DNA of 58,804 nucleotides, from contig NC_090410.1 of assembly GCF_036365525.1 (NCBI RefSeq), positions 11,687,391 through 11,746,194 on the forward strand, read 5' to 3'. Below the pieces are notes generated by a model. It was not told the DNA's origin. It was given only the letters and a program-made list of their open reading frames with translations, and did no database searches. Both the position numbers and the translations under genes were made by a program. Below are positions 4,410 to 56,806 of this stretch, in pieces. The stretch's first letter is position 1. Each line of letters begins with the position of its first letter. The stretch is from Heterodontus francisci. Its lineage: Eukaryota.

Positions 4410-4965
4410 TGAACAGGAGGAGGCCATTTAGCCCCTCGAGCCTGTTCTACCATTCAATCTGCTATCCAGCATGATCCCACTTTTCAGTTCTTGGTCCGTG
4501 GCCTTGTAGGTTGATCTGCAACCTAACCTTTGTCTCACATCCCTCAATGCCTTTGGTTGACAGAAATCTACCAATCTCGGTTTTAAAATTAATTGATCTA
4601 ACACCAATTGCTTTTTGCAGAAGAGAGTTCCAAACTTCTTTGCATGAGGATGTGTTTCCTAATTTCACCCCTGAAAGGTCTGGCTCTAATTTTTAGACTA
4701 TGCCCTCTAGCCCTTGACTCTGCAGCCAACAGAAATAGTTTCTCCCAATCTGCCCTATCTGTTCCCCTTAATATCTTGAAAATTTCGATCAGATCACCCC
4801 CTTAATCGTCTAAATTACAGAAATTCTACCCTAGTTTTTGTGTAATTTCGCCTCATAATTTAACCCTTGGAGTGCAGGTATCATTCTGCTAAATAGACCA
4901 ACATATGCTTCCTAAGTTGTGGTGCCCTGAGATGCTCCCTATGCTCCAGGTGTGGTTTAGCCAAG
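4410..4965 (-). mobile_element. CR1 LINE 3' fragment
   Basis: Antisense CR1 C-terminal region and 3' UTR (GGAGGCCATTTAGCCCCTCGAGCCTG). Confidence 0.7.
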
Positions 4966-5400
4966 GCAGCGGCGCCAGGTTTGTACTCGGGCCGCCCGGG
5001 TAACCAAAGGCCGGTTCCGCTACCTCCACCAACCGCCCAGCCTCTCCCCGAGCGGCTGGGCGGACCCTGCCCGAGTGGAAAATCCCGAGACAGTGCCCAC
5101 TTTTCCTCCCCCGCCTCCGGGTTCCTCACCTCGCCGTTTGCCGTCGCCTGGCGGACCAGCACTTCACTTTCCTGCGCCGCCATCTTCCCACCGTCGCAAA
5201 CTAACTGCGGGATTTCGGCGGAGGTCAAACGAGATCTCGCGTCACATGACCTCCGGAAGCGTGTGATGTGCGATTCCGCCATCATTGATCCTGGCGGAAA
5301 TGGCCGCCTCAGGACATTGCTCCCACCAGCTCCTCTTCAGTGTTGTGCCAGTGGCAGCAACTCATTATTTTACGACTTTAGACGACGTGCTATTGTAACA
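4965..5400 (-). promoter_or_regulatory. CpG island / housekeeping-type promoter
   Basis: CpG-dense; YY1-like GCCGCCATCTT overlapping the ATG, GTCACATGAC E-box (5241-5250), ETS motif CCGGAAG. Confidence 0.8.
5130..5183 (-). CDS. CLPTM1: First coding exon (MAAQESEVLVRQATANGE), probably CLPTM1; the remaining exons lie beyond the left edge
   Basis: AAGATGGCG start in a CpG island; phase-0 GTGAGG donor at 5129; resembles the recalled MAA(A)QE... first exon of CLPTM1; the human gene is on 19q13 like the other genes here. Confidence 0.5.
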
Positions 5401-6081: not shown

Positions 6082-7170
6082 TTCTTTCTTTTGGGCCTCC
6101 TTATCTCGAGAGACAATGGATACGCACCTGGAGGTGGTCAGTGGTTTGTGAAGCAGCGCCTGGAGTGGCTATAAAGGCCAATTCTAGAGTGACAGACTCT
6201 TCCACAGGTGCTGCAGAGAAATTTGTTTGGCGGGGCTGTTGCACAGTTGGCTCTCCCCTTGTGCCTCTGTCTTTTTTCCTGCCAACTACTAAGTCTCTTC
6301 GACTCGCCACATTTTAGCCCTGTCTTTATGGCTGCCCGCCAGCTCTGGCGAACGCTGGCAACTGACTCCCACGACTTGTGATCAATGTCACAGGATTTCA
6401 TGTCGCGTTTGCAGACGTCTTTAAAGCGGAGACATGGACAGCCGGTGGGTCTGATACCAGTGGCGAGCTCGCTGTACAATGTGTCTTTGGGGATCCTGCC
6501 ATCTTCCATGCGGCTCACATGGCCAAGCCATCTCAAGCGCCGCTGACTCAGTAGTGTGTATAAGCTGGGGATGTTGGCTGCCTCGAGGACTTCTGTGTTG
6601 GAGATGCGGTCCTGCCACCTGATGCCAAGGATTCTCCGGAGGCAGCAAAGATGGAATGAATTGAGACGTCGCTCTTGGCTGGCATACGTTGTCCAGGCCT
6701 CGCTGCCATAGAGCAAGGTACTGAGGACACAGGCCTGATACACTTGGACTTTTGTGTTCCGTGTCAGTGCGCCATTTTCCCACACTCTCTTGGCCAGTCT
6801 GGACATAGCAGTGGAAGCCTTACCCATGCGCTTGTTGATTTCTGCATCTAGAGACAGGTTACTGGTGATAGTTGAGCCTAGGTAGGTGAACCTTTGAACC
6901 ACTTCCAGAACGTGGTCGCCAATATTGATGGATGGAGCATTTCTGACGTCCTGCCCCATGATGTTCGTTTTCTTGAGGCTGATGGTTAGGCCAAATTCAT
7001 TGCAGGCAGCCGCAAACCTGTCGATGAGACTCTGCAGGCACTCTTCAGTGTGAGATGTTAAAGCAGCATCGTCAGCAAAGAGGAGTTCCCTGTTGAGGAC
7101 TTTCCGTATTTTGGACTTCGCTCTTAGACGGGCAAGGTTGAACAACCTGCCCCCTGATCTTGTGTGGAGG
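6082..7170 (-). mobile_element. Young 5'-truncated RTE-clade LINE with an open RT C-terminus and a CCHH zinc finger
   Basis: Uninterrupted ORF with LLFADDAAL, FTYLGS and CSTCGRVCHSRIGLYSHSRRC; AAAG-type tail; TSD AACAGGTAT at 6073-6081 and 7171-7179. Confidence 0.92.
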
Positions 7171-8567
7171 AACAGGTATAACACCCCAATATCCTACCTG
7201 TAATCCTATAAACTTTCTGGTATTTACCCTGAAACTATAGCCCCTGCTCTGCATAGTATGTAGTTTCCCAGTGTTCCTTTCCTTGTCTCCTTGGACTCCA
7301 GTTCTGTGTGAAGTTAACAACTCTGAACTGGGAGCCTCTGTAAGAGCTCATCTTTACTTGGGCTTCACGTCAAATTTGGCCAGCACAGACTAACCTGAAC
7401 TAAACCGAGAGATCGCACAAAGGGCAGCAAGTTCAGTGATGGGGCACTTCAGACAGCGTCCTCAAATCAGCTCAGCAAACTAATCTCTGGGCTTTGATTT
7501 CAATAATGGAAAATTTTAACAGAATGATAGTAATTACAGCATCGGAAGAGGACATTTGACCCCCAGTGCCCGTGCTGGCACTCTTCTGCTGTAAACCCAC
7601 ATAGATCCTTTTACATTGCTCCTTTTCAAGTAATTATCCCATTCCCTTATTAAATGATGTTGTTCTCTCTACTGCAGTAAGCCACTTGTGGTGAAGCATC
7701 TCATGGTCTAAAAGCCATCAGTTCAAGAACCTTCCTTTTCACTCCCCCTTTCCTGGACCAAGGCCCCAGAAAGGTCCTACAAACAGCAGTGAGAGAAATG
7801 ACCAGATAAACTGTTGATCTGGTCATTTACCAGATACTTCCTAAGACCTATTGGCTCAGGTATCATTCTATTCCATTTGTTCAACTTGGCGTCTCAGCTG
7901 AGTACAGATGGGCAGGTGGGTAATGTCTTTGAGCCCCACTGTAAGTGACGGCTACATTTGTGTGGGTCTTTCTAGTTTTGCAATGAATGGCTGACCACAC
8001 AATGAAAGATACGTTTTATTTATTATCCTGAGGGTGGCTTTCAGTTCACTGCGATTCTGAAGTCAACAGAGACAGGATAGAATACAAACTCAACAGTATT
8101 AAACAGCCATCTAAGACATAAGGGACCAAGTTACTAGGATCAGTTTTATTTTGACTGTTGGCACAAGAGATGTATCCGTTGCTTGCAATAGTACAAGAAA
8201 AATAGTCAAGTAGTGATGACTATCAATGTCTGTATTTAACCCTATTCAGTTATCTATTTATCTAAGTATCAGCCAGTTGGTAGCACTCTCACCTCTGAAT
8301 GAGGAGGCCATGGGTTTAAGTCTGTCTCCAGGACTTGAGCCCAAAAATCAAGGCTGACACTCAGTTCAGTACTGCGGGAGTGCTGCATTGTCGAAGGTGC
8401 TTTCTTTTGGGTGAGATGTTAAACTGAGGCCCCATCTGTTCTCTCAGGTCATCATAAAAAATCCCATGGCACTATTTCAAAAAAAGCAGGGGAGTTATCC
8501 TTGGTATCTTGGCCAACGTTTCTCCCTAAATCAACATTACAAAAACAAATTATCTGCTAACTCACAT

Positions 8568-9892: not shown

Positions 9893-10191
9893 GGCTGTAA
9901 AGAGCTTTGGGACGTCCTGAGGTCTTGAAAGGTGCTACGTAAATGCATGTCTTTCCTTATTAACTGTACAGTAGATCTATTTGATAGTTTATAACTTATA
10001 TCGCAGTGTGATACGACTGCTTGTTCTACCTTCCACTATACCAAAGTCAAGAATATCGCATGAAGACATGTTATATGTCCAATACATAGAACTTATAGCA
10101 CAGAAATAGGCCATCTGGCCCAAATGGTTAATGCCAGTGTTTATGATCCATGCAAGTCTCTTCATAGTTCTTCATCTAACCTTATCAGAGT

Positions 10192-10386
10192 AAGAAAAGC
10201 AAAATAATGCAGATGCTGGAAATCTGAAATAACAACAAAAAATGCTGTAAAACACTCAGCAGGTCTGGCAGCATCTGTGGAGAGAGAAGCAAAGTTAACG
10301 TTTCAAGTCAGTCTGAAACTGTTAACTTTGCTTCTCTCTCCACAGATGCTGCCAGACCTGCTGAGTGTTTTCCAGCACTTTTTGTG
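10192..10386. mobile_element. Fold-back Penelope-like element, family A
   Basis: Head-to-head arms meeting at about 10310; perfect 11-bp TSD CTTATCAGAGT (10181-10191 and 10387-10397). Confidence 0.85.
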
Positions 10387-10410
10387 CTTATCAGAGTTAT
10401 CTTCTATTCC

Positions 10411-10854
10411 TGAAAAAAGAGACATGCTGTTGAAGCTTTTTGTCTAACACTCATCAGGACAAATGCAAGAATGCCAAATTTCAAACAGAGCAACAATTTA
10501 AACTGCATGAGAAAAAGGTGCTGTTTGGTTGGCAAGTCGACTCTGATTGCTCAAGGCATTGCCACGGAGAATGCACCAGGGAGCTATTGTCCCACACGCT
10601 TTTGTTTAATTCAGAAATGGTGCAATGCTTGGACATGTTCCTTTTGTTTTGAATTGAACAAAAGTGTGGGGGCAAAACAGTTCCTTGGTGCATTCTCCAT
10701 GGCAACGCCTCGACCAATCTGAGTTAGCTTGCCAACCAAAGAGCACCCTTTTCTCATGCAATATAAATTGTCTCGCCCTTTGAAATTTGGCATTCTTGCA
10801 TCTGTCCTGATGAGTGCAAGACGAAAAGCTTTGACAGCATGTCTCTTTTTTTCA
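10411..10854. mobile_element. 444-bp fold-back element, family B, with a hammerhead motif in each arm
   Basis: Arms of about 10411-10617 and 10647-10854 are imperfect reverse complements around a ~30-nt spacer. Confidence 0.88.
10802..10837 (+). ncRNA. Minimal type-I hammerhead ribozyme motif
   Basis: Stem I CTGTC/GACAG, core CTGATGA (10807-13), 2-bp stem II GT-gcaag-AC, GAAA (10823-26), palindromic AAGCTT stem III, UH = TT (10831-32). Confidence 0.7.
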
Positions 10855-12257
10855 TGTGTTTATCTAGCTTTCCCTTCAATACATTTATGCTATTCACCTC
10901 AACTACTCCCTGTGGTACCGAATTCCACATCCTCGCTACACTCTGGGTAAAGATGTTTCTCCTGCATTCCCTATTTACTTGTTCCTATATTTATGGCCCC
11001 TAGTTTTGGTGTCCCCAACAAGTGAAAACATTCTCTACATGGTCCCTATCAAACCCTTTCATAATCTTAGATCCTCTATCAGATTACCCCTCAGCCTTCT
11101 CTTTCCCAGAAAAAAGCCTGTTCAATTGTCCTGATAGGTATAACCTTTCAGTTCTGGCATCAGCCTCATACCTTCTTCAGTGCCTCTACCTAGTTTATAA
11201 TACGGAGACCACACTATGCACAGTACTTTTTATATGTGGTCTGGCCAAATTTCCAAACAACTGCGAGGGGCAAAGTTTAGAGGGGATGTGCGAGGCAAGT
11301 TCTTTACACAGCGGGTGGCGAGTGCCTGGAACTTGCTGCCGGGGGAGGTGGTGGAAGCAGGTACGATAGAGACTTTTAAGAGGCATCTTGACAAATACAT
11401 GAATAGGATGGGAATAGAGGGATATGGTCCTCAGAAGGGCAGAAGGTTTTAGTTTAGACAGGCATCAAGATCGGCGCAGGCTTTGAGGGCCGAATGGCCT
11501 GCTCCTGTGCTGTACTGTTCTTTGTTTAACATAACTTCTCTGCTTTTCAATTCTAGCCCTCTAGAATGAACCCATGCTTTGTTTGCTTTTTAATGGCTTT
11601 ATTAACCTGCATAACTACTTTAAATGATTCATGCATCTACATCCCCAGATCCTATTGCTCCTCTACACCATTAAGACTTATTTTCCAAGTTGTTACTCAT
11701 TCTACCAAGGTGCACATTTAACTATATTGAAATTCATTTGCCATTTACTCGCCCATTCTGCAATTCTGTGAGTGGCTTCTTGTATTCTGTTGCAGTCATC
11801 CTCTGTATTAACTACATCCCCCAATTTAGTGTCATCCACAAATTTTGATAGTGTACTCCATATTCCGGAGTCCAAATCATTTATGTAACTGGTGAAAAAC
11901 AGTGGTCCGAGCACCTCTCCCTATGGAATACCACTTCCCACATACAACCTCTACGCTCTGTCTTGCATTCTGCTGCTTGTACCTGACTCCACATGTTCTA
12001 TTTACTTGTGAACTGATGACAGAGAGTTAGAGTAACTGTACCACCAACTTGTATGAGCATTCACTGTGAAATTCCCCATTTAACAACTTAAGTAAAACCT
12101 TCATATAATAGATCCCAAAGCTAGAAAGTTCATAGTTCATTGTTGATAATCCTTGAGAGTTAACCCAATTTTTTAGCAGAATGGCATTACATCAGGTTGT
12201 GCCCTATATCCCTTTGGCATAAACAAAGACTATAAATTCTTCTTTAAAGATCATAAT

Positions 12258-12795: not shown

Positions 12796-13098
12796 TCAGT
12801 CCAGCTCTTTAAACTGTCGTGGCGAGTCTTTCATCTTTTGTAGCCCAAGGTTCTTTGATGGATTGAATCTAATGAAAGCTGCCAGTTGTTTGGTGTTTGA
12901 ATCCCTTAATAGGTCTAACTGTCTCTGCCCTCTTCGTAACAGGTACTCAATGTGCATCACGTCAGTTTTGGATATTTGGGAGTTCTTGCGAAATTCATCA
13001 TGAATCAGAGGCAAAAATCCAGGTTTCTCTTTGGCAGCCCGGAGAAATTGTTTGTAAAGGTTTAAGACCTGTTTCTGTAGTTTGCTGTATCTAACCAT
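12796..13098 (-). CDS. SDHAF1: Succinate dehydrogenase assembly factor 1 (LYR-motif protein), 100 aa
   Basis: SKLQKQVLNLYKQFLRAA...EFRKN...DVMHIEYLLRRGQRQL matches SDHAF1/LYRM8; splice acceptor TTTTTGAACAG just upstream (13125-26). Confidence 0.93.
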   Translation of the reverse strand: MVRYSKLQKQVLNLYKQFLRAAKEKPGFLPLIHDEFRKNSQISKTDVMHIEYLLRRGQRQLDLLRDSNTKQLAAFIRFNPSKNLGLQKMKDSPRQFKELD

Positions 13099-13379
13099 TG
13101 TGTCATATCAGGATCTACCTGGATCTGTTCAAAAACAATAAAAATGATGTTATGGCACTTTCTGCATTTTATTCCCAACTAAAATGTTCACATTGACAAA
13201 ACTTACGCTTGCAATAGTTTTTAAAAATTACTTCTATTCTTGTTCATTTTCAAGTTGGGTTCCAAGAGATCGTATCAATCCACTAATAAGAGGACATTGT
13301 TTAAAATTAAACTAATGTGCCCAATGAGAGTGCACAGATGGAACTAAATGAACAAGTTCAATTGACAGCGCATTCAAGT

Positions 13380-15850: not shown

Positions 15851-16230
15851 GTTTCCACCTGAGGTTGCAGACAGGACCTCAGTTTAACATCTCAGCTGAG
15901 TTTGGCACACCCACAATACTGTACAGAAGTGTCAGCCTAGAATTTTTCTTTAGGCCTCTAGAGATTGACTTGAACCTACAATCTTCTGACTCAGAGTGCA
16001 ACCCACTAGCCACGGCTGATTACTGAAGACAGACAAAGGGAACAGATAGAAAAGTAGGGTCAAGTCCAAATTCAGGGTGGAGAGCATGCTTGTTACTTTT
16101 GAAACTGCAATAAAAAAGTATGAATGCTTTCACAGAAGATACACAAGTGTAACATGGTTTCATAGTTGGACTATGCAAAACCCTTTCCATTAACTTGATG
16201 TGTTCTTTATCCAATGAGTTTCTCTTTGAT

Positions 16231-16388
16231 ATAACAACAGAAAATTCTGGAAACACTCAGCAGGCCTGGCAGCACATGTGGAGAAAGTTAACATTTCTGA
16301 ACTGAAACTTTAACTCTGTTTCTCTCTCCACAGATGATGCTGCCAGGCCTGCTGAGTATTTCCAGCAGCCGCAGTATTTTGCTTTTGT
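16231..16388. mobile_element. Fold-back Penelope-like element, family A (decayed)
   Basis: GGAAACACTCAGCAGGCCTGGCAGCA ... TGCTGCCAGGCCTGCTGAGTATTTCC inverted arms. Confidence 0.75.
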
Positions 16389-16439: not shown

Positions 16440-16880
16440 TTGAGACGGCGCAAAACCGTCGTAACTTCAGCAGTCCACTCCCTCTGTTACCCATTTACAC
16501 AGGGTTGGGCCTTTCTCCCACTGCACTCGTTGCCCTTCATGTCGGATTAGCGTCCCAGTTCCCATTTTTTACAGCCGGCAATTTAATCCCAAAACCACCA
16601 AAATCGCACCCCCTCCCCCCCCATTTACACAATAGAGGTTTACCCGCAAAATCCCGCTACTCCTACCGCAGCGCCACCACTCCACAACACCGACCCCGGT
16701 CCGCCCAGCGCAGTGCCACCACGACCCTGGTCCTCCCACCACAGCGCCACCAGGACCCCGGTCCTCCCACCACAGCGCCACCAGGACCCCGGTCCTCCCA
16801 GCACAGCGCTACCTGCCGTCGCTGGACCTCCTCCCAGCTGATCGCTACCTGTCTGCAGTGCTGCTTCTTGCAGTTCCCCT
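16440..16880 (-). promoter_or_regulatory. GC/CpG-rich segment; candidate SDHAF1 promoter and non-coding first exon
   Basis: Nearest CpG-rich region upstream of the SDHAF1 acceptor; CAG/GTAGCG donor-like sites at 16812 and 16848. Confidence 0.45.
16692..16812. repeat. 31-bp GC-rich minisatellite, about 4 copies
   Basis: ACAGCGCCACCAGGACCCCGGTCCTCCCACC-type units at 16710, 16741, 16772 and 16803 (partial). Confidence 0.9.
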
Positions 16881-29602: not shown

Positions 29603-30381
29603 AACAAGTTTTCTTTTATAAAAAAAAGGAAAAGTTTTCAGGGTACCTCAGAAGCATGCAACATTTCAACACAGAAATACACTCACTTGGTATCCAACCA
29701 AGGCTCTAGAGAAAAGCAGTAAAATTCACAGGCCAGCATAGTTTTAGAACCATTATTTCTTACATTTACTATACAAAAATCCTCTCTTCCCCTTTAGATG
29801 TTACCTCAAAGCTTACTGTTCTGTGACAGAACATGTTGCGACATAACGGTTAGCCAAAATCAAGGGCATGGAATGTATCAGGGACCAAAGCTGCATTAAA
29901 AGCGGTTCCATTAACGCTGGCAGCCTGATGAGCAATGGTCTTCCAAATTTAGATGGACCATAAATACATTTAGTCAACTCTAGTTTTCATCTCAATCAAC
30001 AAAAGATACAACACAAAGGAATCTGTGTGGGGATAAGGAGGGCATCTGATACCCATAGAAGAATGAAATACCACTTTTGAGGAGAGGAAGATACTTTAAA
30101 TGTGAAACTATCCCTTTTTAGATCAGCCAAATTCACATACTTAGAATTTATTACGAACATAATCCATAGCTGCCCTTGATATTTATGGTTGTTAAACAAT
30201 TAGGGCTAAGCCCACAAACTCTGAACAACTGTCCTGATTTGAGAGATCAGCTGCTTTCCCAGATTACAGTCCAAATTATAGCTTTTTGTCTCAGAGCATG
30301 CAGGTGGTAAATAATGCAAGGCAAATTTTCCTTCAAACTTTACCACTGTGGATTCTACTGCCAAGTTACAAACCAACTTAC

Positions 30382-30573
30382 CAACATACATTACTGTTCC
30401 CCGTTTGGATGGCTGCCCCGAGATTAGAACCTCACACCTTGCACCAACTAGAATAGCATCTGCCAAAATCTTTTCCTCTTGTACCCTTTGCTCAAGCTCG
30501 ATCTGTTCCTTTGCTTTCTGCTCCTCGTTATACAAGCCCAATTTACTGCGTTTCAGGAACAAACGCATCGAAT
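30382..30573 (-). CDS. TBCB: TBCB exon 4
   Basis: [18 protein letters not shown]...VGARCEV...KRGTVMYVG; 192 nt, AG/GT. Confidence 0.95.
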
Positions 30574-31394
30574 CTAAAATAGAAATCAGTTAATTGTTTG
30601 GTTACAAACTGTCAGAAGCACTTTCAGCTAACATTGCTCCAACAAGCTGGAGACATAGATCAACAACTTAGTACAAATGTTAACTGAACAAATGGATCCT
30701 GGGGGGGGGGGGGGGGGGGGTGGAAAATGAAACTTTCCTGACCATTGTTACACACTAAACTTTATCCATCAGCTCTCAGCAATGCCAGCTTGGTACTTTC
30801 TCCCAGATGCATCCATTAACTCCCCTTCCCCATGGAAGAGAATACCTGATTGATTCAAGATCAACCTAGATCCAACTACAACATTTTGTATTTTTTCCTT
30901 TACACAGGGATGGATGGATTGAGTGATTTTTTTTTAAATGAGCTACTGGAAATGGAAATTAGAAGCTGGCAAAAAACTATGAGGAAAACAGGCCTGTTTG
31001 ACCTGATAATTAATATCAGATAAGGGAAAACAGTATGAAGTGGTTGCATTTTGACCATATTCCTAGTTACTCAGCAGATACTAAGCAACACTACTTATCA
31101 ACATGGAATGCTGCCATCTCACCACTGTGCCAGCTTGGACAAAGACATTTAGCTAGCTGGTGCCCATTCTCGATTCCTTGTTTTGCAATGCTGCCGTACA
31201 AGTTAGAGATTAATAGGAGCTCCACAAGGATCAGTTCTCAAAGCTTCTCAACACTGATTCATCAAAAGTTATTCAAGAACTAAACTTCAGAATTTTTGCA
31301 CTAGAACAGCCAAATTAAGTGAAATGTGAAGTCAAAAGCAATTATAAATTTAAAAGTAAGGGTTAAACTTCATAAGTAATTTCTAGCCTGAGCC

Positions 31395-36526: not shown

Positions 36527-37080
36527 AAATAAAAACAAGGTGCTGAAAATACTCAGCATCTGCAAAGAGAGCAGAGTTAACGTTCCAGATCTGGGACCTT
36601 TTATCAGAACTGGCAAAGGTTAGAAATGTTTTAAGCAAGTGGAGCAGGAATGGGGGAAGACAACAAAAAGGACAGCGTGTGATAGGGCAAGAGAGATTAA
36701 CTGACAAGGAGGTCATGGGGCAAAGGGAGAGTACTAATGGTATGGTGAAAGAGCAACACCATTAGAACACTCCCTTTGCCCCATGACCTCCTTTTCAGTT
36801 AATCTCTCTTGCCCTCTGCCTCATCAGGCACCGTCCCTTTTGTTCTCTTCCTCCCCCCTAAACCCCAACCGTCCCTGTTGTTCTCTTCTCTCCCACCTCC
36901 ACTTCACTTGCTCAAAACCTATTACATTTCTAACCTTTGCCAGTTCTGATGAAAGGTCACAGACCTTAAACGTTAACTCTGATTCTCTCTCCACAGATGC
37001 TGGCAGACCTGCTGACTATTTCCAGCACTTTCTTGTTTTTATTTCAGATTTCCAGCATCTGCAGTATTTGGCTTTTATAT
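36527..37080. mobile_element. Longer fold-back Penelope-like element, family A, with a mutated hammerhead in each arm
   Basis: Inverted arms; AGTT-CTGATGA(36946-52)-AAGGTCacaGACCT-TAAA-CGTT-AACT; degenerate 15-nt TSD (36512-26 and 37081-95). Confidence 0.8.
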
Positions 37081-37499: not shown

Positions 37500-38270
37500 C
37501 ACTTAGAGCCCACGGTCTACGCAGCTTGCACCGGGCAGCCGGTTTAAAACTTCACCCGTCAATGAAAGCTAGCATAAAGAGTGCAGGCGCACCTTAAACC
37601 CCGCCCATGTCAATCTGACCCCGAATCTCCGCCCACTTGACCGCGCCCCTAAACCCCGCCCATGCCAAGCTGCGCCTGCCCATGACTCCGCCCACGACTC
37701 TGTCCAACTCCAGCCGGCCCCGCCCCTGAACTCCGACCATGGCAACGCCCACGTCTAACCGACTCCGCCCCATGTCCTGACCCCCACGGGCCTTCGGTGT
37801 GCCTCTCCCAAGTTTTATTTCGCGCTCCCCGGGGCCATCACTCACTCACTTTCAGCTCGGACACGGTGATGCCGCGGTTGAATCTTTTCTCCGAGACAAA
37901 CGAAGTCAACGAGCTGGTGATCCGCACCTCCACCGCCGGCGCCGACACCACCTTGTACGACTCCTCCTCCATCTCAGTCAGCTTGGCCGCACTGCCGGCC
38001 TGCGAGCGTGTCCTCCGGCTCCGGTGGGCGATGCGCGGGCCTCGGTTTTCAGGCGGGGCCGGAGGGCGGCTAATGGGGCTCTCTCAGCGGGGAAGTTACT
38101 GGCTAACGGGCGGCGCGATTTAAATCTTTGTGCCGTTTCCTCTCGCGCAGCCCGATTCCAGAATCTTCCAGCACCGGTGGTTGGATGATCGGAAGGCCAC
38201 GCCTACCGTCCAATCAAGAGAAGACCAGGAGGGGCACGTGTTCATTATGTTCGTCTCCATGGTAATTATT
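37500..38270 (-). promoter_or_regulatory. TBCB CpG island and promoter
   Basis: CpG-dense; clustered CCGCCC boxes at 37600-37770; CCAAT 38210-14, CACGTG 38235-40, X-box-like GTCTCCATGGTAAT 38253-66. Confidence 0.8.
37850..37972 (-). CDS. TBCB: TBCB exon 1 (coding part)
   Basis: MEEESYKVVSAPAVEVRITSSLTSFVSEKRFNRGITVSELK then GTGAGT; the six exons sum to 747 nt (248 aa plus stop). Confidence 0.95.
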
Positions 38271-49900: not shown

Positions 49901-50049
49901 ATATGACTGGTTCCAGGGAACTATACGCAGAAAGGGTAAGCGTCACCAGGAAGGAGGGGAAGAGAAAAAAGTAGCAAGGAAAATGATCCCTGAGCAAATG
50001 TCCAGGGATGTCCAGTGGCCTCTTGAGCATACCTGGTTTGAATTGCTCC

Positions 50050-51118
50050 ATCATTGGGGGGCTGTGCCTTCAGCTGCCTGGGCCCTAATTTCTGGAATTC
50101 CCTCCCTAAACTACTTCTTCCTCCTTGAAGATGCTCCTTAAAACCTACCTCTGACCAAGCCTTTGGCCATCTGCCCTTATATCTCTTTAGTGGCTCAGTG
50201 TCCAATTTTGCTTTATAACCCCCCTGTTGAGAGCCTTGGCATGTTTTATTATGTTGAAGGTGCTATAAAGAAGCTATTGTTGTTGCAAGTTCATAATCCT
50301 ACCACCTTTGGGGAGGGGTTCACTCATTATTGTTTAGCTATTCCTGTAGGTTAGATGCACAACAATTTGTATTTATATAGCACCTTAAACGTGGTGGAAC
50401 GTCCCAAGGTTCTTCACAGGTGCATTAGCAGACTAAAGAAGATAAAAGGACAGACGACCCAAAGATTGGTTGCAGAGTTAGGTTTAGGATCATCTTAAAA
50501 AGGTGAGAAAAGCGAAGAGGCTTAGGGCGCAAATTGCTGAAGGCACAGCCGCCAATAGCGGAGCAAAGAAAATTGGGGATGCGCGAAGGGCCAGAATTGG
50601 TGGAGTGCAGAGACCTTGGAGGGTTGTAGGGCTGGTGAATGTTACAGAAATAAGGGAGATTACATATGGGTACAAACTACTCCAAGAACCTGTGTTACTT
50701 GTGCTGTGATTTTCTAGTACTCGGAGAATGTTAGCAAGCTCTTCTCAAACAGCACTTTGCAACGGCTTATTCTCAACTAACAACGACAACTTTCACTTCT
50801 ATAGCACCCTTAATGTAATCAAACATCCCAAGGCATTTCGCAGTAGAGTTAGCAAATAAAATTTGACACCGAGCCGCATAATACTGGGAGATACTCCGAG
50901 ATACTGGGACAGGCTGGTCAAAGAGCTGGGTTTTAAAAGCAGTCTTAAAAAGAATGAAAAGTAGAGGCTGAGGGGTTTAGGAGGGGAATTCCAGAGATTA
51001 GGGCCTAGGCAACTGAAGGCATAGCCACCAATGGTGGAGTGTTTAAAATAGGCCAGAATTGGAGGAGCGCAGAGATCTTGGGAGGGTTCTAAGGCTGGAG
51101 GAGGTTACAGAGATAACT
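50050..51118. mobile_element. Cluster of L2 3'-tail fragments on both strands
   Basis: Three pieces homologous to 31395-31842. Confidence 0.65.
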
Positions 51119-51151
51119 ACTCTTGTCAGTCTCTGCACCTCCCATACTCAC

Positions 51152-52429
51152 CACTTTACCTGGCCGTGCCCATGTGCAAATAAAGCCTTCTTGGCAAGCA
51201 GTGACTATGCAGTCCTCCAAGAATATCAACACCGTTAGTCTCTCGTGTGCAATCTTTTTACAGACCAGAGGCTCCAGCAAGGGCACCTCGTCCATGCGGG
51301 GACACAAAGTGGTCCCCAAAGTCTTCGCTGAGTCAAGTTTGTTTCTCAGGACCAGGTTGAGCTTGTCATTACTCTTGCTGATGACGTGCCCGATGCTGTG
51401 GTTCCGCTTGTGGTCTTTCTCCACGCTTTTATCTTTGCGCTCATGGAGTGTCAGTGTTGCAAATTTGCTGATGCTGAAGGGGATGCCCCCGTCCGTCGCG
51501 TGGGCCTTGCTGTTGGCATTCGTAACAGCCGGGTGTGGCAGACTGTTCGACCGGGAGAGCGAGTGCGGGATGGAGTTGACCATGCTGGCTTCCAGCGTGA
51601 GACTGCTGGTGTGGCTTCCGCAGCTCAGGGAGCCAGGGATGGCTGTGTTCACCACGTTTGTATGCGTCCGAGCTCGAGAGAGGGGCTGATGGGGGAATAG
51701 AATGTCTTCCGTCAAATCCCACAGGCAGAACTGAGTGTCCTGCCCTACGGAGCCAAACCGGTAGGTTACGTTTGTTGCCTGGCCATCCGTGGAGTTGTGC
51801 TTGGAGAGTCGGGATAAAGTGCTGTTTGTCCGGTTGCGGGTGAAGGGGGCATGCTCCTGAAAGTCCTCGTCACTGCCACTGAACTCTGGCGGGTCCCCAT
51901 CGTCAACGCTGCTCGTGTAAGGGTCAAAGGCCACCACGCTGACCCAGGACTTGTGGCCATGACCCCGAGCGATCACCCGGCAGTCCCAGAAGGACCAGAC
52001 CGTCACCAGGTCGTCCTCACCCCCCGTCACAATGTACCTGCCGTCTGGACTCCAGCACACGCACAGCAGCCCCCCAAAGTAGCTCTTCATCACACCGTAC
52101 AGCTCCATCGAGTCGAAATGGAAAACCCTCAGGCTGCCGTCTTGACTGGCGCACGCCACGTGCTTGCCATCAGGGGCGAAGGCGAACTCGTGGAGGGCGC
52201 CCTCGCCGACTGACCATTTCAGCAACGGGTTCCGGCTCGACTTGCTTTTGCAGGTGTACACTGCAAAGCCAGGCCCCTGTTTAAGCGGCTGGTAGTGGGG
52301 GGCGGTGGTGCCACATGGGTGCTCTACATTGTAGAGGTACAGGTTGCCACTGGTGTGGGCGACAAGGAAGAGGCTCTCTGACTCTGGCATCCATTTCAAG
52401 CAGGTCACCTTGGTCTTGTCGATGAATCT
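51152..52429 (-). CDS. DMWD: DMWD-family exon 3 (WD40 repeats), 426 codons
   Basis: RFIDKTKVTCLKWMPESESLFL...SYFGGLLCVCWSPDGRY...PLLEPLVCKKIAHERLT...WARPGKV; AG at 52430-31, GTGAGT donor. Confidence 0.92.
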
Positions 52430-54688: not shown

Positions 54689-55885
54689 CTAAGGAGAACA
54701 TAAAAGGCTCATTTTCAGTCAAGATGACTTTGGGTGTCAGTACTACAAGCAGCTAAACCAGCTAACATTTTACAACTCGTATCAAATTAATGGCCCAAAT
54801 CCCTCCAAGGCGACAAGGCTGCAACTGTAAACAAGAAGCCAAGTGTGTGCTGCAAGTATAACAGAACTGTTTTAAGATGGAAAAAATCTACATCTTGTTT
54901 GCCTTCAAAACTCCAGGCATAACATGTTAGAAACATATGAACAGGAGGAGGCCATTCATCCCATCGAGCCCATTCCACCATTCAACTAGGACAGGGTTGA
55001 GCTGTATCTTCACTCCAGCTACCCGGCCTAGGTTCAGTAACCAATACCATTGCATAACAAAAACATATCGATCTCAGTTTGTAAATTTTCAATTGAGCCC
55101 CAAGCCTCAACAGCTTGTATGGGGAGGAAGAATGTTCCAGATTTCCATTACCCTGCAATTTCTGAGCATCCAATAAAATCATGGCTGATCTTCAACCTCA
55201 CACCACTCTCCCACCTGATCCCCATATACCCTCATATCCATTGTGCATCGACAGGGTAGATAATTATAAAAGTTCACAACTTTATGCATGAAGAAGTTTC
55301 TCATCACAGTCCTAAATGGCTGACCCCCTTATCCTGAGACTATAACCCCTAGTTCGGGACTCTCCAGCCATTGAAGTATTTTCTGAAGTGTATTCACTCC
55401 AGTCAGCACTGTCCCATCGAACACTCCCAAGTTAAGTACAACACAGGAGTGAAGGTCTTTTTGCTAGCTCACTGAGTAACTCTGCTATCAGGCACTAACA
55501 TCTTTAAAAATACACATGTATTTCACTGGTCTAATGGATCAGATGTCCTATATTCTAGTGAATTTGCTGCCCCGGACCTGCTTTGCTTTCCTTTAGCACA
55601 TGCACCAATAACCACCATACCCCATTCTTTCATTCGCTGCTACTAAATCCCAACTCTTGATTGCCCCCACTACCTGGCCCAGTCCTCCACAAGCCCTGCT
55701 ACCTGAACCCAACCCTTGACCCCAACACTACCTGGCCCCAGTCCTCCACCACTGAGCCCCGCCGCCTGACCTCTGCTCAGTGTAAACATTAACTAGGGAG
55801 GGGGGCGGCGCCGGACTCAGCGCCCGGGCCTGGTCAGTGGGCCTGAACCCCTCACCCCGCCCGGCGGCTCTGGCCCCGGCCTCAC

Positions 55886-56137
55886 CTTCCTGGGACCCCG
55901 GTAAAGGTAGAGGTAGAGCTCGCGGCCCACATTAAAGCAGATGCGGTCCCCGCTGCCGCTCTGGTCCCGCACGTTCACCATGGACACCCGCACAGGGTTA
56001 GTCCCCTGGGTGGCGCTGAGGGGCACCCGGTTCGGGCGGCTATACTCGGACAGGCTCAGCAGCTTGTAGGCTCCCTCCCGGGTCCGGAACTGCGACTTGA
56101 TCTCGTTCAGCTCCTTCCCTCCGCCCTCCGCCGCCAT
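55886..56137 (-). CDS. DMWD: DMWD-family exon 1 (coding part), 84 codons
   Basis: AAGATGGCG start; MAAEGGGKELNEIKSQFRTREGAYKLL...DRICFNVGRELYLY...RK then GTGAGG; lies in a CpG island. Confidence 0.93.
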
Positions 56138-56173
56138 CTTCAGCCGGAGCCGCAAAACAGCGGCTACCGTTCG

Positions 56174-56390
56174 CTCCGCCGGCAGCGCCACCTCCCGCCA
56201 GACCTCCGCCGGCAGCACCTCCTCCCTACCGGCAGCGCCACCTCCCGCCAGACCTCCGCCGGCAGCGCCACCTCCCGCCAGGCCTCCCCCGGCAGCGCCA
56301 CCTCCCGCCAGGCCTCCGCCGGCAGCGCCTCCTCCCGCCCGGCCTCCACCGGCAGCGCCTCCTCCCGCCCGGCCTCCACCGGCAGTGCCA
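56174..56390. repeat. 30-bp GC-rich minisatellite directly upstream of the DMWD ATG
   Basis: GGCAG at 56181, 56211, 56231, 56261, 56291, 56321, 56351 and 56381 (one 20-bp unit). Confidence 0.95.
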
Positions 56391-56625
56391 ATCTGACAAT
56401 CCTTGGTGATGAATTCCATAAAAGGTGCAACACAGAAAGCGGCCGTTCGGCCCATCTGGTCAATACTGGCGTTTATGCTCCACACGAGCCCCCTCCAATT
56501 CACTCCATCTCACTCTATCAGCATTGCACAAAGCTGACTGGAAAAAGATATTGACCCATGGTGGATTTGAATCAAGGAGTCTTGCTCCAGTTACCACAAA
56601 GCAAATCAGGATTTAGTTTGAAGCA

Positions 56626-56806
56626 AATAAAAATAGAAAGTGCTGGAAAAACTCAGCAGGCCTGGCAGCCTCTGTGGGGAGAGCAGAGTTAAGCTGAAAC
56701 ATGAACTCTGCTTCTCTCTCCACAGATGCTGCCAGACCTGCTGCTTTCTTCCACTACTTATTGTTTTTACTTCAGATTTCCAGCATCCACAGTATTTTGC
56801 TTTTAC
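56626..56806. mobile_element. Fold-back Penelope-like element, family A
   Basis: Inverted arms meeting at about 56695; 14-nt TSD with 2 mismatches (56612-25 and 56807-20). Confidence 0.82.

Follow-up and report, generated by a model that had tools for sequence, protein, structure and literature searches.

The window, i.e. the whole stretch of 58,804 nucleotides of Heterodontus francisci DNA analysed here, is chordate DNA rich in LINE fragments with RT domains. It contains a palindromic insert of 444 bp with a hammerhead motif in each arm. The features at and around this element are the following:

10085..10410 (10085-10191 and 10398-10410), minus strand: 3' end of the host CR1-type LINE, left part, interrupted by the neighbouring hairpin
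10192..10391, no strand: neighbouring hairpin of a second set of palindromes, family B (tail 10195-10232; 11-bp TSD 10181-10191/10387-10397)
10411..10854, no strand: whole palindromic insert, a head-to-head inverted repeat (alignment and folding)
10411..10616, minus-strand sense, 3' end outward: left arm, putative pseudo-LTR (pLTR) copy (orientation from the hammerhead core)
10427..10462, minus strand: decayed mirror hammerhead of the left arm (alignment to the right arm)
10617..10646, minus strand: spacer, putative tail of a parent ORF (11 codons 10646-10614, TGA stop 10613-10611)
10647..10854, plus-strand sense, 3' end outward: right arm, putative inverted pLTR copy (arm alignment)
10714..10718, plus strand: CCAAT box-like motif (left-arm counterpart 10550-10546, one change)
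10762..10767, plus strand: TATAAA motif lying upstream of stem I by 40 nt (in the left arm 10502-10497, with one change)
10794..10800, plus strand: leader complementary to stem II/loop II, a possible pseudoknot or competing hairpin (folding)
10798..10842, plus strand: minimal type-I hammerhead of the right arm (descriptor, Rfam, folding)
10855..11263, minus strand: right part of the host CR1-type LINE (matches the C-terminus of an RT ORF in the window, tblastn E 5e-8)

Judged from the sequence, the element sits within one minus-strand CR1-type LINE fragment, the two sides of which run collinear to a diverged paralogue at 11260-11530. The insertion point lacks about 10 nt that the paralogue has, a rough figure given that the paralogue is ~60-70% identical. 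An SDHAF1-like LYR gene in one ORF (12796-13107, minus strand; protein from the ORF 12799-13098, nearest clusters chordate) points toward the element, which lies ~1.9 kb past its stop codon with five candidate poly(A) signals (12668-11589) between. Read-through from this gene past the poly(A) signals would make a 200-bp double-stranded rod.

Several other features were noted in the window. Inverted RT-encoding LINE 3' fragments, presumably RTE-like, lie at 1901-2461 and 6091-6650 (89-93% complementary, ~3.6 kb apart), and the frame 6138-7193 is open for 351 codons. WD40 protein exons, which we take to be DMWD/WDR20-like, are found at 51089-52429 and 55817-56509 (minus strand), and a GC-rich tandem repeat (56174-56390, 30-bp unit x 7.6) lies just upstream of the start of this gene. 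A second GC-rich tandem repeat occupies 16691-16813 (31-bp unit x 4). Exons at 30206-30589 (minus strand) and 37686-38123 are presumably TBCB-like, a GC-rich probable first exon lies near 5100 (~4881-5336, minus strand), and an inverted pair, 50046-50284 and 50779-51039, is 69% alike over ~265 bp with ~500 bp between its members.

Architecture and decay of the palindrome

The preliminary description of this DNA proposed two inverted arms of ~207 bp around a spacer of ~30 nt. The alignment bears this out: 10411/13-10616 and 10647-10851/54 share 173 of 204 bases with one gap, and the 30-nt spacer is continuous with the left arm. Both arms terminate at the identical base of the element, and host flank is absent from them. 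The palindrome folds at -292 kcal/mol (-284 was also computed; z = -30.7), and none of 100 shuffles equals it. The window holds one copy of the element, and no head-to-tail repeat or tandem array of it.

The 31 mismatches between the arms comprise 21 transitions and 10 transversions (K2P 0.17), and seven of them are flagged as CpG-type. The ribozyme and leader region differs at 6 of 44 positions and the remainder at 25 of 160. Thus, the decay spares the ribozyme region no more than the rest, no sign of selection is seen in this copy, and the decay looks neutral.

Also as described earlier, there is no clear TSD: of 2000 random position pairs, 726 match as well as the flanks do at their best. 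Nor does the element have a fixed TSD (TA, TAA, 8 bp or 9 bp) at its ends, where the longest exact repeat is 3 nt; the preliminary description had named a fixed TA or 8-bp TSD as evidence against its own reading. A one-sided tail of 30-40 bp was not found on the element either.

Hammerhead motifs, promoter motifs and coding potential

The right arm carries a complete minimal hammerhead at 10802-10837, exactly as first described. Stem I (10802-06/10833-37) can be extended via 10798-801/10839-42 around a bulge. It is followed by the core (10807-13), a stem II of 2 bp (10814-15/10821-22; with its loop 10814-22), GAAA (10823-26) and a 6-nt palindrome (10826-31), and the predicted cut falls after U10832. 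The mirror hammerhead reported on the minus strand of the left arm is also there, ~350 bp away from core to core. Its core is intact at 10457-10451 and, in agreement with the earlier account, C17 at the cleavage site is retained (10432) while G12 of GAAA is lost at a CpG (10441). In addition, stem I pairs (10431, 10462) and loop II (10446-47) are altered. At 10431 the left arm lacks the stem I pair adjoining the cut site, while U17 is found in the right arm; these two states are reciprocal, as produced when one CpG decays on opposite strands. The hammerhead is thus intact in form on the right arm only.

A minimal-hammerhead descriptor run on both strands of the window has the right-arm motif as its sole match. 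On dinucleotide shuffles, any match occurs in 4 of 300, and one with a stem I of at least 5 bp and a palindrome of at least 6 nt in 0 of 300. Both the descriptor and the strict filter were composed after the motif was seen and miss decayed sites, so this result speaks for non-randomness and not for completeness. The preliminary description had further proposed a scan with hammerhead models. Rfam does give one match on the element, to the RAGATH-1 hammerhead, but it is weak (19.6 bits, E 0.18, with the gathering score at 56.3), and the Rfam scan of the whole window contains no hammerhead match. The RAGATH-1 model (RF03152) resembles the element in its very short, G-C-closed stem II with a 7-nt loop and in the AU step that precedes a stem I of 5 bp. 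However, it has a long stem III in place of the 6-nt palindrome, and the score is far below the gathering threshold.

Folding was done with ViennaRNA, which keeps pseudoknots outside its model. In the full-length, arm-only and from-10792 transcripts, stems I and II have a probability of 0.0, while in the isolated 45-nt core stem I reaches ~0.9 and stem II 0.35. In the short transcripts the stems are blocked because the leader (10794-10800) pairs over 7 bp with 10815-10821; restricted to the loop, the pairing is 5 bp (10795-99 with 10816-20). A complement of the leader of length 7 is found in 0.13% of random 12-nt windows and a 5-nt loop-only complement in 0.9%. Given that pseudoknots are outside the model, these bases may instead form a helix between loop II and the leader, propping up a stem II of 1-2 bp. 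The 2-bp stem II together with the leader-complementary loop suggests a pseudoknot-supported hammerhead variant. The two loop changes in the left arm break this pairing, and no compensatory change is found between the arms. Helices between stem I and stem II are known among hammerheads (PMC10085705). According to a review, minimal hammerheads of Penelope-like elements (PLEs) usually have no tertiary contacts (PMC6155905), and the stem II of the hammerheads in File S2 of PMC8557442 has at least 3 bp.

Cleavage by hammerhead dimers is summarised in PMC6765202. Here, a double-hammerhead dimer through the palindrome has a computed energy of -18.1 kcal/mol (best dimer fold -20.7), and a folded monomer -7.6 each, -15.2 for two. 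The double-hammerhead dimer is plausible energetically. However, each strand of the element carries a single sense ribozyme, so that no transcript of this locus holds a ribozyme dimer, and the rod buries the one ribozyme present (stem probability 0).

The CCAAT and TATA motifs, like both ribozymes, face outward. Their spacing in the right arm occurs twice in the window. By the usual TATA spacing, transcription driven by them would start at ~10792, just before the ribozyme, and exit the element. In PLEs the pLTRs hold the promoter, which is TATA-less in the case described in PMC2377424; in a rotifer, the pLTR is reported to include a TATA box along with the initial 12 ORF codons (PMC3846280). 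In the element an ATG lies inside the right-arm hammerhead core (10810), with ~14 codons to the element end. The short end of the arm has a pyrimidine tract followed by CAG, both in the element (10410-10425, minus strand) and in family B (37030-37047, plus strand); just downstream of the ribozyme, this resembles a 3' splice site.

Read on the minus strand, the spacer gives QKEHVQALHHF and then the stop, which we take to resemble the C-terminus of some PLE ORFs. The spacer may thus represent the final codons of the ORF of a parent, in which case the left copy would consist of an ORF end plus pLTR. The earlier statement that the element has no ORF is right as to a real gene, although stop-free frames of ~80-102 aa are present, and the ORF of an autonomous PLE with RT and GIY-YIG domains is absent from it. 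Pfam has no match below E 0.05 for five frames of the element, and nothing for the element among 17 ORFs chosen from the 330 of at least 60 aa in the window. A word-based protein search with the 82-aa minus frame gave no candidates, nor did its last 40 aa against longer proteins; this search requires three 5-residue words in common, which 11 informative residues probably cannot provide. With a two-row profile built from the sense frames, 54 candidates came up, all above E 10, and the Atlas protein search with the element was blank. Two matches were rejected: the only one by phmmer among 1.84 billion representatives is an artefact (a tandem-repeat protein with no matched stretches and no BLASTP alignment), and the only one in the PDB has an E-value of 0.9 and was judged to be chance. 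A six-frame motif scan of the window showed no further PLE-like coding fragment, and two exact-pattern scans of prokaryotic genome contigs had 0 matches, as expected. Text and supplement searches did not find the spacer peptide or the element sequence in print; the published EN alignment ends short of the C-terminus. Protein and text searches thus gave no sequence link to any RT/GIY-YIG element, with 11 codons of putative ORF tail to compare. A description of the element's family was not found in the literature searched.

A rod with a facing hammerhead in each polarity is the plan of viroid-like circular RNAs. The element could be read as an integrated copy of such an RNA, replicated by a symmetric rolling circle in which the partner for the dimer comes from tandem copies. 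Its size, its rod fold and its single hammerhead in each polarity agree with that plan, although the left one is decayed, and the dimer (-18.1 kcal/mol) can be set against two folded monomers (-15.2). However, the arms differ like neutrally decaying DNA duplicates, there is no head-to-tail repeat or DNA multimer in the window, Pol II promoter motifs lie inside, the termini are 21 nt beyond the cut sites, and the PLE route discussed below explains the same anatomy with published precedent. We regard an integrated viroid-like circle as extremely improbable. There is likewise very little to be expected of a related reading, in which the palindrome is itself a replicating, self-complementary RNA of ~440 nt with nearly the same sequence in its plus and minus strands, circularised and copied either in a viroid-like manner or by a PLE RT. 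Its hammerhead would then be a new variant active in multimers only, with a palindromic stem III and a 1-2-bp stem II propped by the loop II-leader pseudoknot, and silent in the rod.

Family B palindromes in the same window

Four further palindromes, here called family B, lie at 10192-10391, 16227-16386, 36527-37078 and 56625-56805, with a single arm at 1771-1897. They have no similarity to the 444-bp element. All four extend by ~30-40 bp at one end only, and three have TSD-like repeats of 11-17 bp, which are equalled by 2, 12 and 88 of 2000 random pairs (855 of 2000 for the fourth palindrome). The fold-back centre differs in all four. The hairpin at 10192-10391, with arms 94% alike, lies in the same CR1 remnant, ~13 bp from the left end of the element.

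In the ~550-bp palindrome at 36527-37078, both arms contain a hammerhead-like core, one on the plus strand at 36946 and the other a decayed mirror near 36607. The cores point outward, and the palindrome has a one-sided tail and a 15-bp TSD-like repeat. This core is not called by Rfam and is missed by the minimal-hammerhead descriptor. The single arm at 1771-1897 also keeps a hammerhead-like core, whereas the short hairpins fold back within the ribozyme or just past it and have thereby lost the core. Over hairpins of the window Rfam also gives miRNA matches, but these do not reach the threshold and stem from palindromy alone.

A one-sided tail of 30-40 bp together with an inverted truncated copy is described as a PLE signature (PMC8557442, PMC11167929). 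The genome thus apparently forms head-to-head palindromes of the PLE type routinely and afresh at each insertion, formation anew being favoured by the four differing centres. For the 444-bp element, which has no tail or TSD of its own, this argues by analogy. Variable truncation can be demonstrated in family B alone, as the 444-bp element has a single copy in the window.

Family B bears on three other explanations of the element. The first is a palindrome of fixed length, non-autonomous and amplified in trans by a PLE protein, with either strand serving as template. Both ends carry the cis signals, RNA reading through the palindrome would finish in a pLTR whichever strand is transcribed, mobilisation of sequence in trans is possible with pLTRs alone (PMC3846280), and non-autonomous PLE derivatives are reported (PMC8557442; bioRxiv 10.64898/2026.07.22.740005). 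However, the different centres of all four family B palindromes favour formation anew, the rod of -292/-284 kcal/mol buries the ribozyme, and the outward promoter motifs would not transcribe the palindrome. We consider amplification in trans unlikely.

The lack of a TSD and the ~10 nt of host sequence that the site has lost could also be accounted for by insertion of a single pLTR fragment to which the inverted arm was added afterwards, through local fold-back duplication during repair. This is quite improbable: the arms end at one identical element base and include no host flank, and there are four family B palindromes in 59 kb, three of them with TSD-like repeats.

Finally, long inverted repeats without an ORF are what a DNA-transposon derivative (MITE, fold-back or Crypton-type palindrome) would have, with the hammerhead being incidental, and to our knowledge palindromic non-autonomous Crypton derivatives without TSDs exist. 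We find such an origin very improbable, given that a hammerhead with a 5-bp stem I and a 6-nt palindrome appears in 0 of 300 shuffles, that a TA or 8-bp TSD is lacking, and that hammerhead-like cores matching in place and orientation are present in the unrelated family B.

Probable origin from a Penelope-like element

We suggest, as the likely explanation, that the 444-bp element is a dead, 5'-truncated PLE insertion with two head-to-head pLTRs in a CR1 fragment. By its anatomy it very probably belongs to the PLEs: there is an inverted copy joined head-to-head, as seen from the arm alignment and core orientation, and near the 3' end of the repeat lies a minimal type-I hammerhead with a palindromic stem III. 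The link to PLE pLTRs with minimal, dimer-type hammerheads made in the preliminary description is therefore supported by anatomy as well as by published precedent. The PLE parentage, promoter activity, ORF tail and insertion mechanism are what we infer for the element. Against an origin as a PLE insertion, the searches gave no sequence link to an RT/GIY-YIG element, and it has no tail and no TSD, unlike family B; the tail is described as optional in PLEs (PMC8557442, PMC3846280), and some PLE copies are reported without a TSD, the length of which is variable (PMC3846280).

The closest precedents are dual minimal type-I hammerheads on opposite strands, 100-700 bp apart, which have been attributed to truncated PLEs (Schistosoma Cercyon and a Cotesia bracovirus PLE; PMC4209133). 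These share with the element the G10.1-C11.1 pair and the palindromic 15.2-16.2 region. Stem II, however, has 2 bp here and 7-8 bp in the schistosome families and, unlike the PLEs described there, the element has no extra nucleotide after position 9 and a loop II complementary to the leader.

The inverted pLTRs of Penelope/Poseidon, Neptune, Nematis and Hydra elements are also comparable, with a head-to-head arrangement, arms of ~200 bp and a TATA-like motif (PMC3846280, PMC8557442, PMC2377424). The pLTRs described in PMC3846280 are 181-218 bp long with a TATA box inside, and head-to-head is their commonest inverted form. As in the element, an ATG lies by the ribozyme with ~14 codons to the end, and one copy is slightly longer at the 5' side. 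The element differs in having no ORF body, no 30-40-bp tail and no TSD. Animal non-LTR retrozymes are similarly non-coding, have a type-I hammerhead and a proposed pLTR origin, and are reported in the one chondrichthyan sampled (bioRxiv 10.64898/2026.07.22.740005). Yet retrozymes are head-to-tail tandems with ribozymes on the same strand, while the element is one inverted pair without a tandem array.

The element most likely arose by a single old insertion from an endonuclease-bearing PLE. The RT/GIY-YIG protein would have nicked an A/T-rich spot in the CR1 remnant, and only the RNA's 3' end would have been copied, twice. The left copy (minus strand) would run through the pLTR plus 30 nt into the ORF end, while the right copy halted at the pLTR start, and both would be joined head-to-head with their 3' ends outside. 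For this, RT may have been primed by both nicked strands at one and the same site of the RNA; alternatively, the first cDNA may have turned back on itself. The Anolis Poseidon protein is reported to nick and extend both strands and to begin RT at two fixed internal sites (PMC11167929), and double-strand extension from fixed internal RNA sites would give the layout of the element directly. Self-priming is a published alternative (PMC3846280). Inverted ends in head-to-head orientation are commonly left behind by PLE insertion.

In the parent, each pLTR would have been a Pol II promoter with a minimal hammerhead immediately after it, cutting only as a dimer through the 6-nt palindrome and probably aided by protein. 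The Anolis Poseidon hammerhead is described as cutting only with the help of protein and as dispensable for insertion in vitro (PMC11167929). The ribozymes in the element would be passengers, the left one broken and the right one without a partner on the same strand.

The further proposal of the preliminary description, a distinct non-coding fold-back retroelement that works as a rod RNA of ~200 bp, finds no support. Ribozymes on opposite strands cannot dimerise in one transcript, the rod sequesters the sense ribozyme, the ribozyme region decays unspared, and inverted ends are routine in PLE insertion. The arrangement is already known for PLEs, and the element most likely adds another relic of that kind. 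A ribozyme on each strand together with a rod fold is, in animal DNA, alone no sign of a viroid-like agent. Were the palindrome nevertheless a replicating RNA, it would link PLE pLTRs directly to two-polarity ribozyme circles in a vertebrate.

If the element is a PLE insertion, head-to-head remnants with ends at the RT start form a record for testing double-strand priming; in vitro work suggests, without settling it, that PLEs prime on both target strands (PMC11167929). Experimentally, the most worthwhile feature is the combination of a short stem II and a leader complementary to it. It may represent a PLE hammerhead with a Watson-Crick contact between stem I and stem II, and many genomic copies would allow this contact to be tested by covariation.
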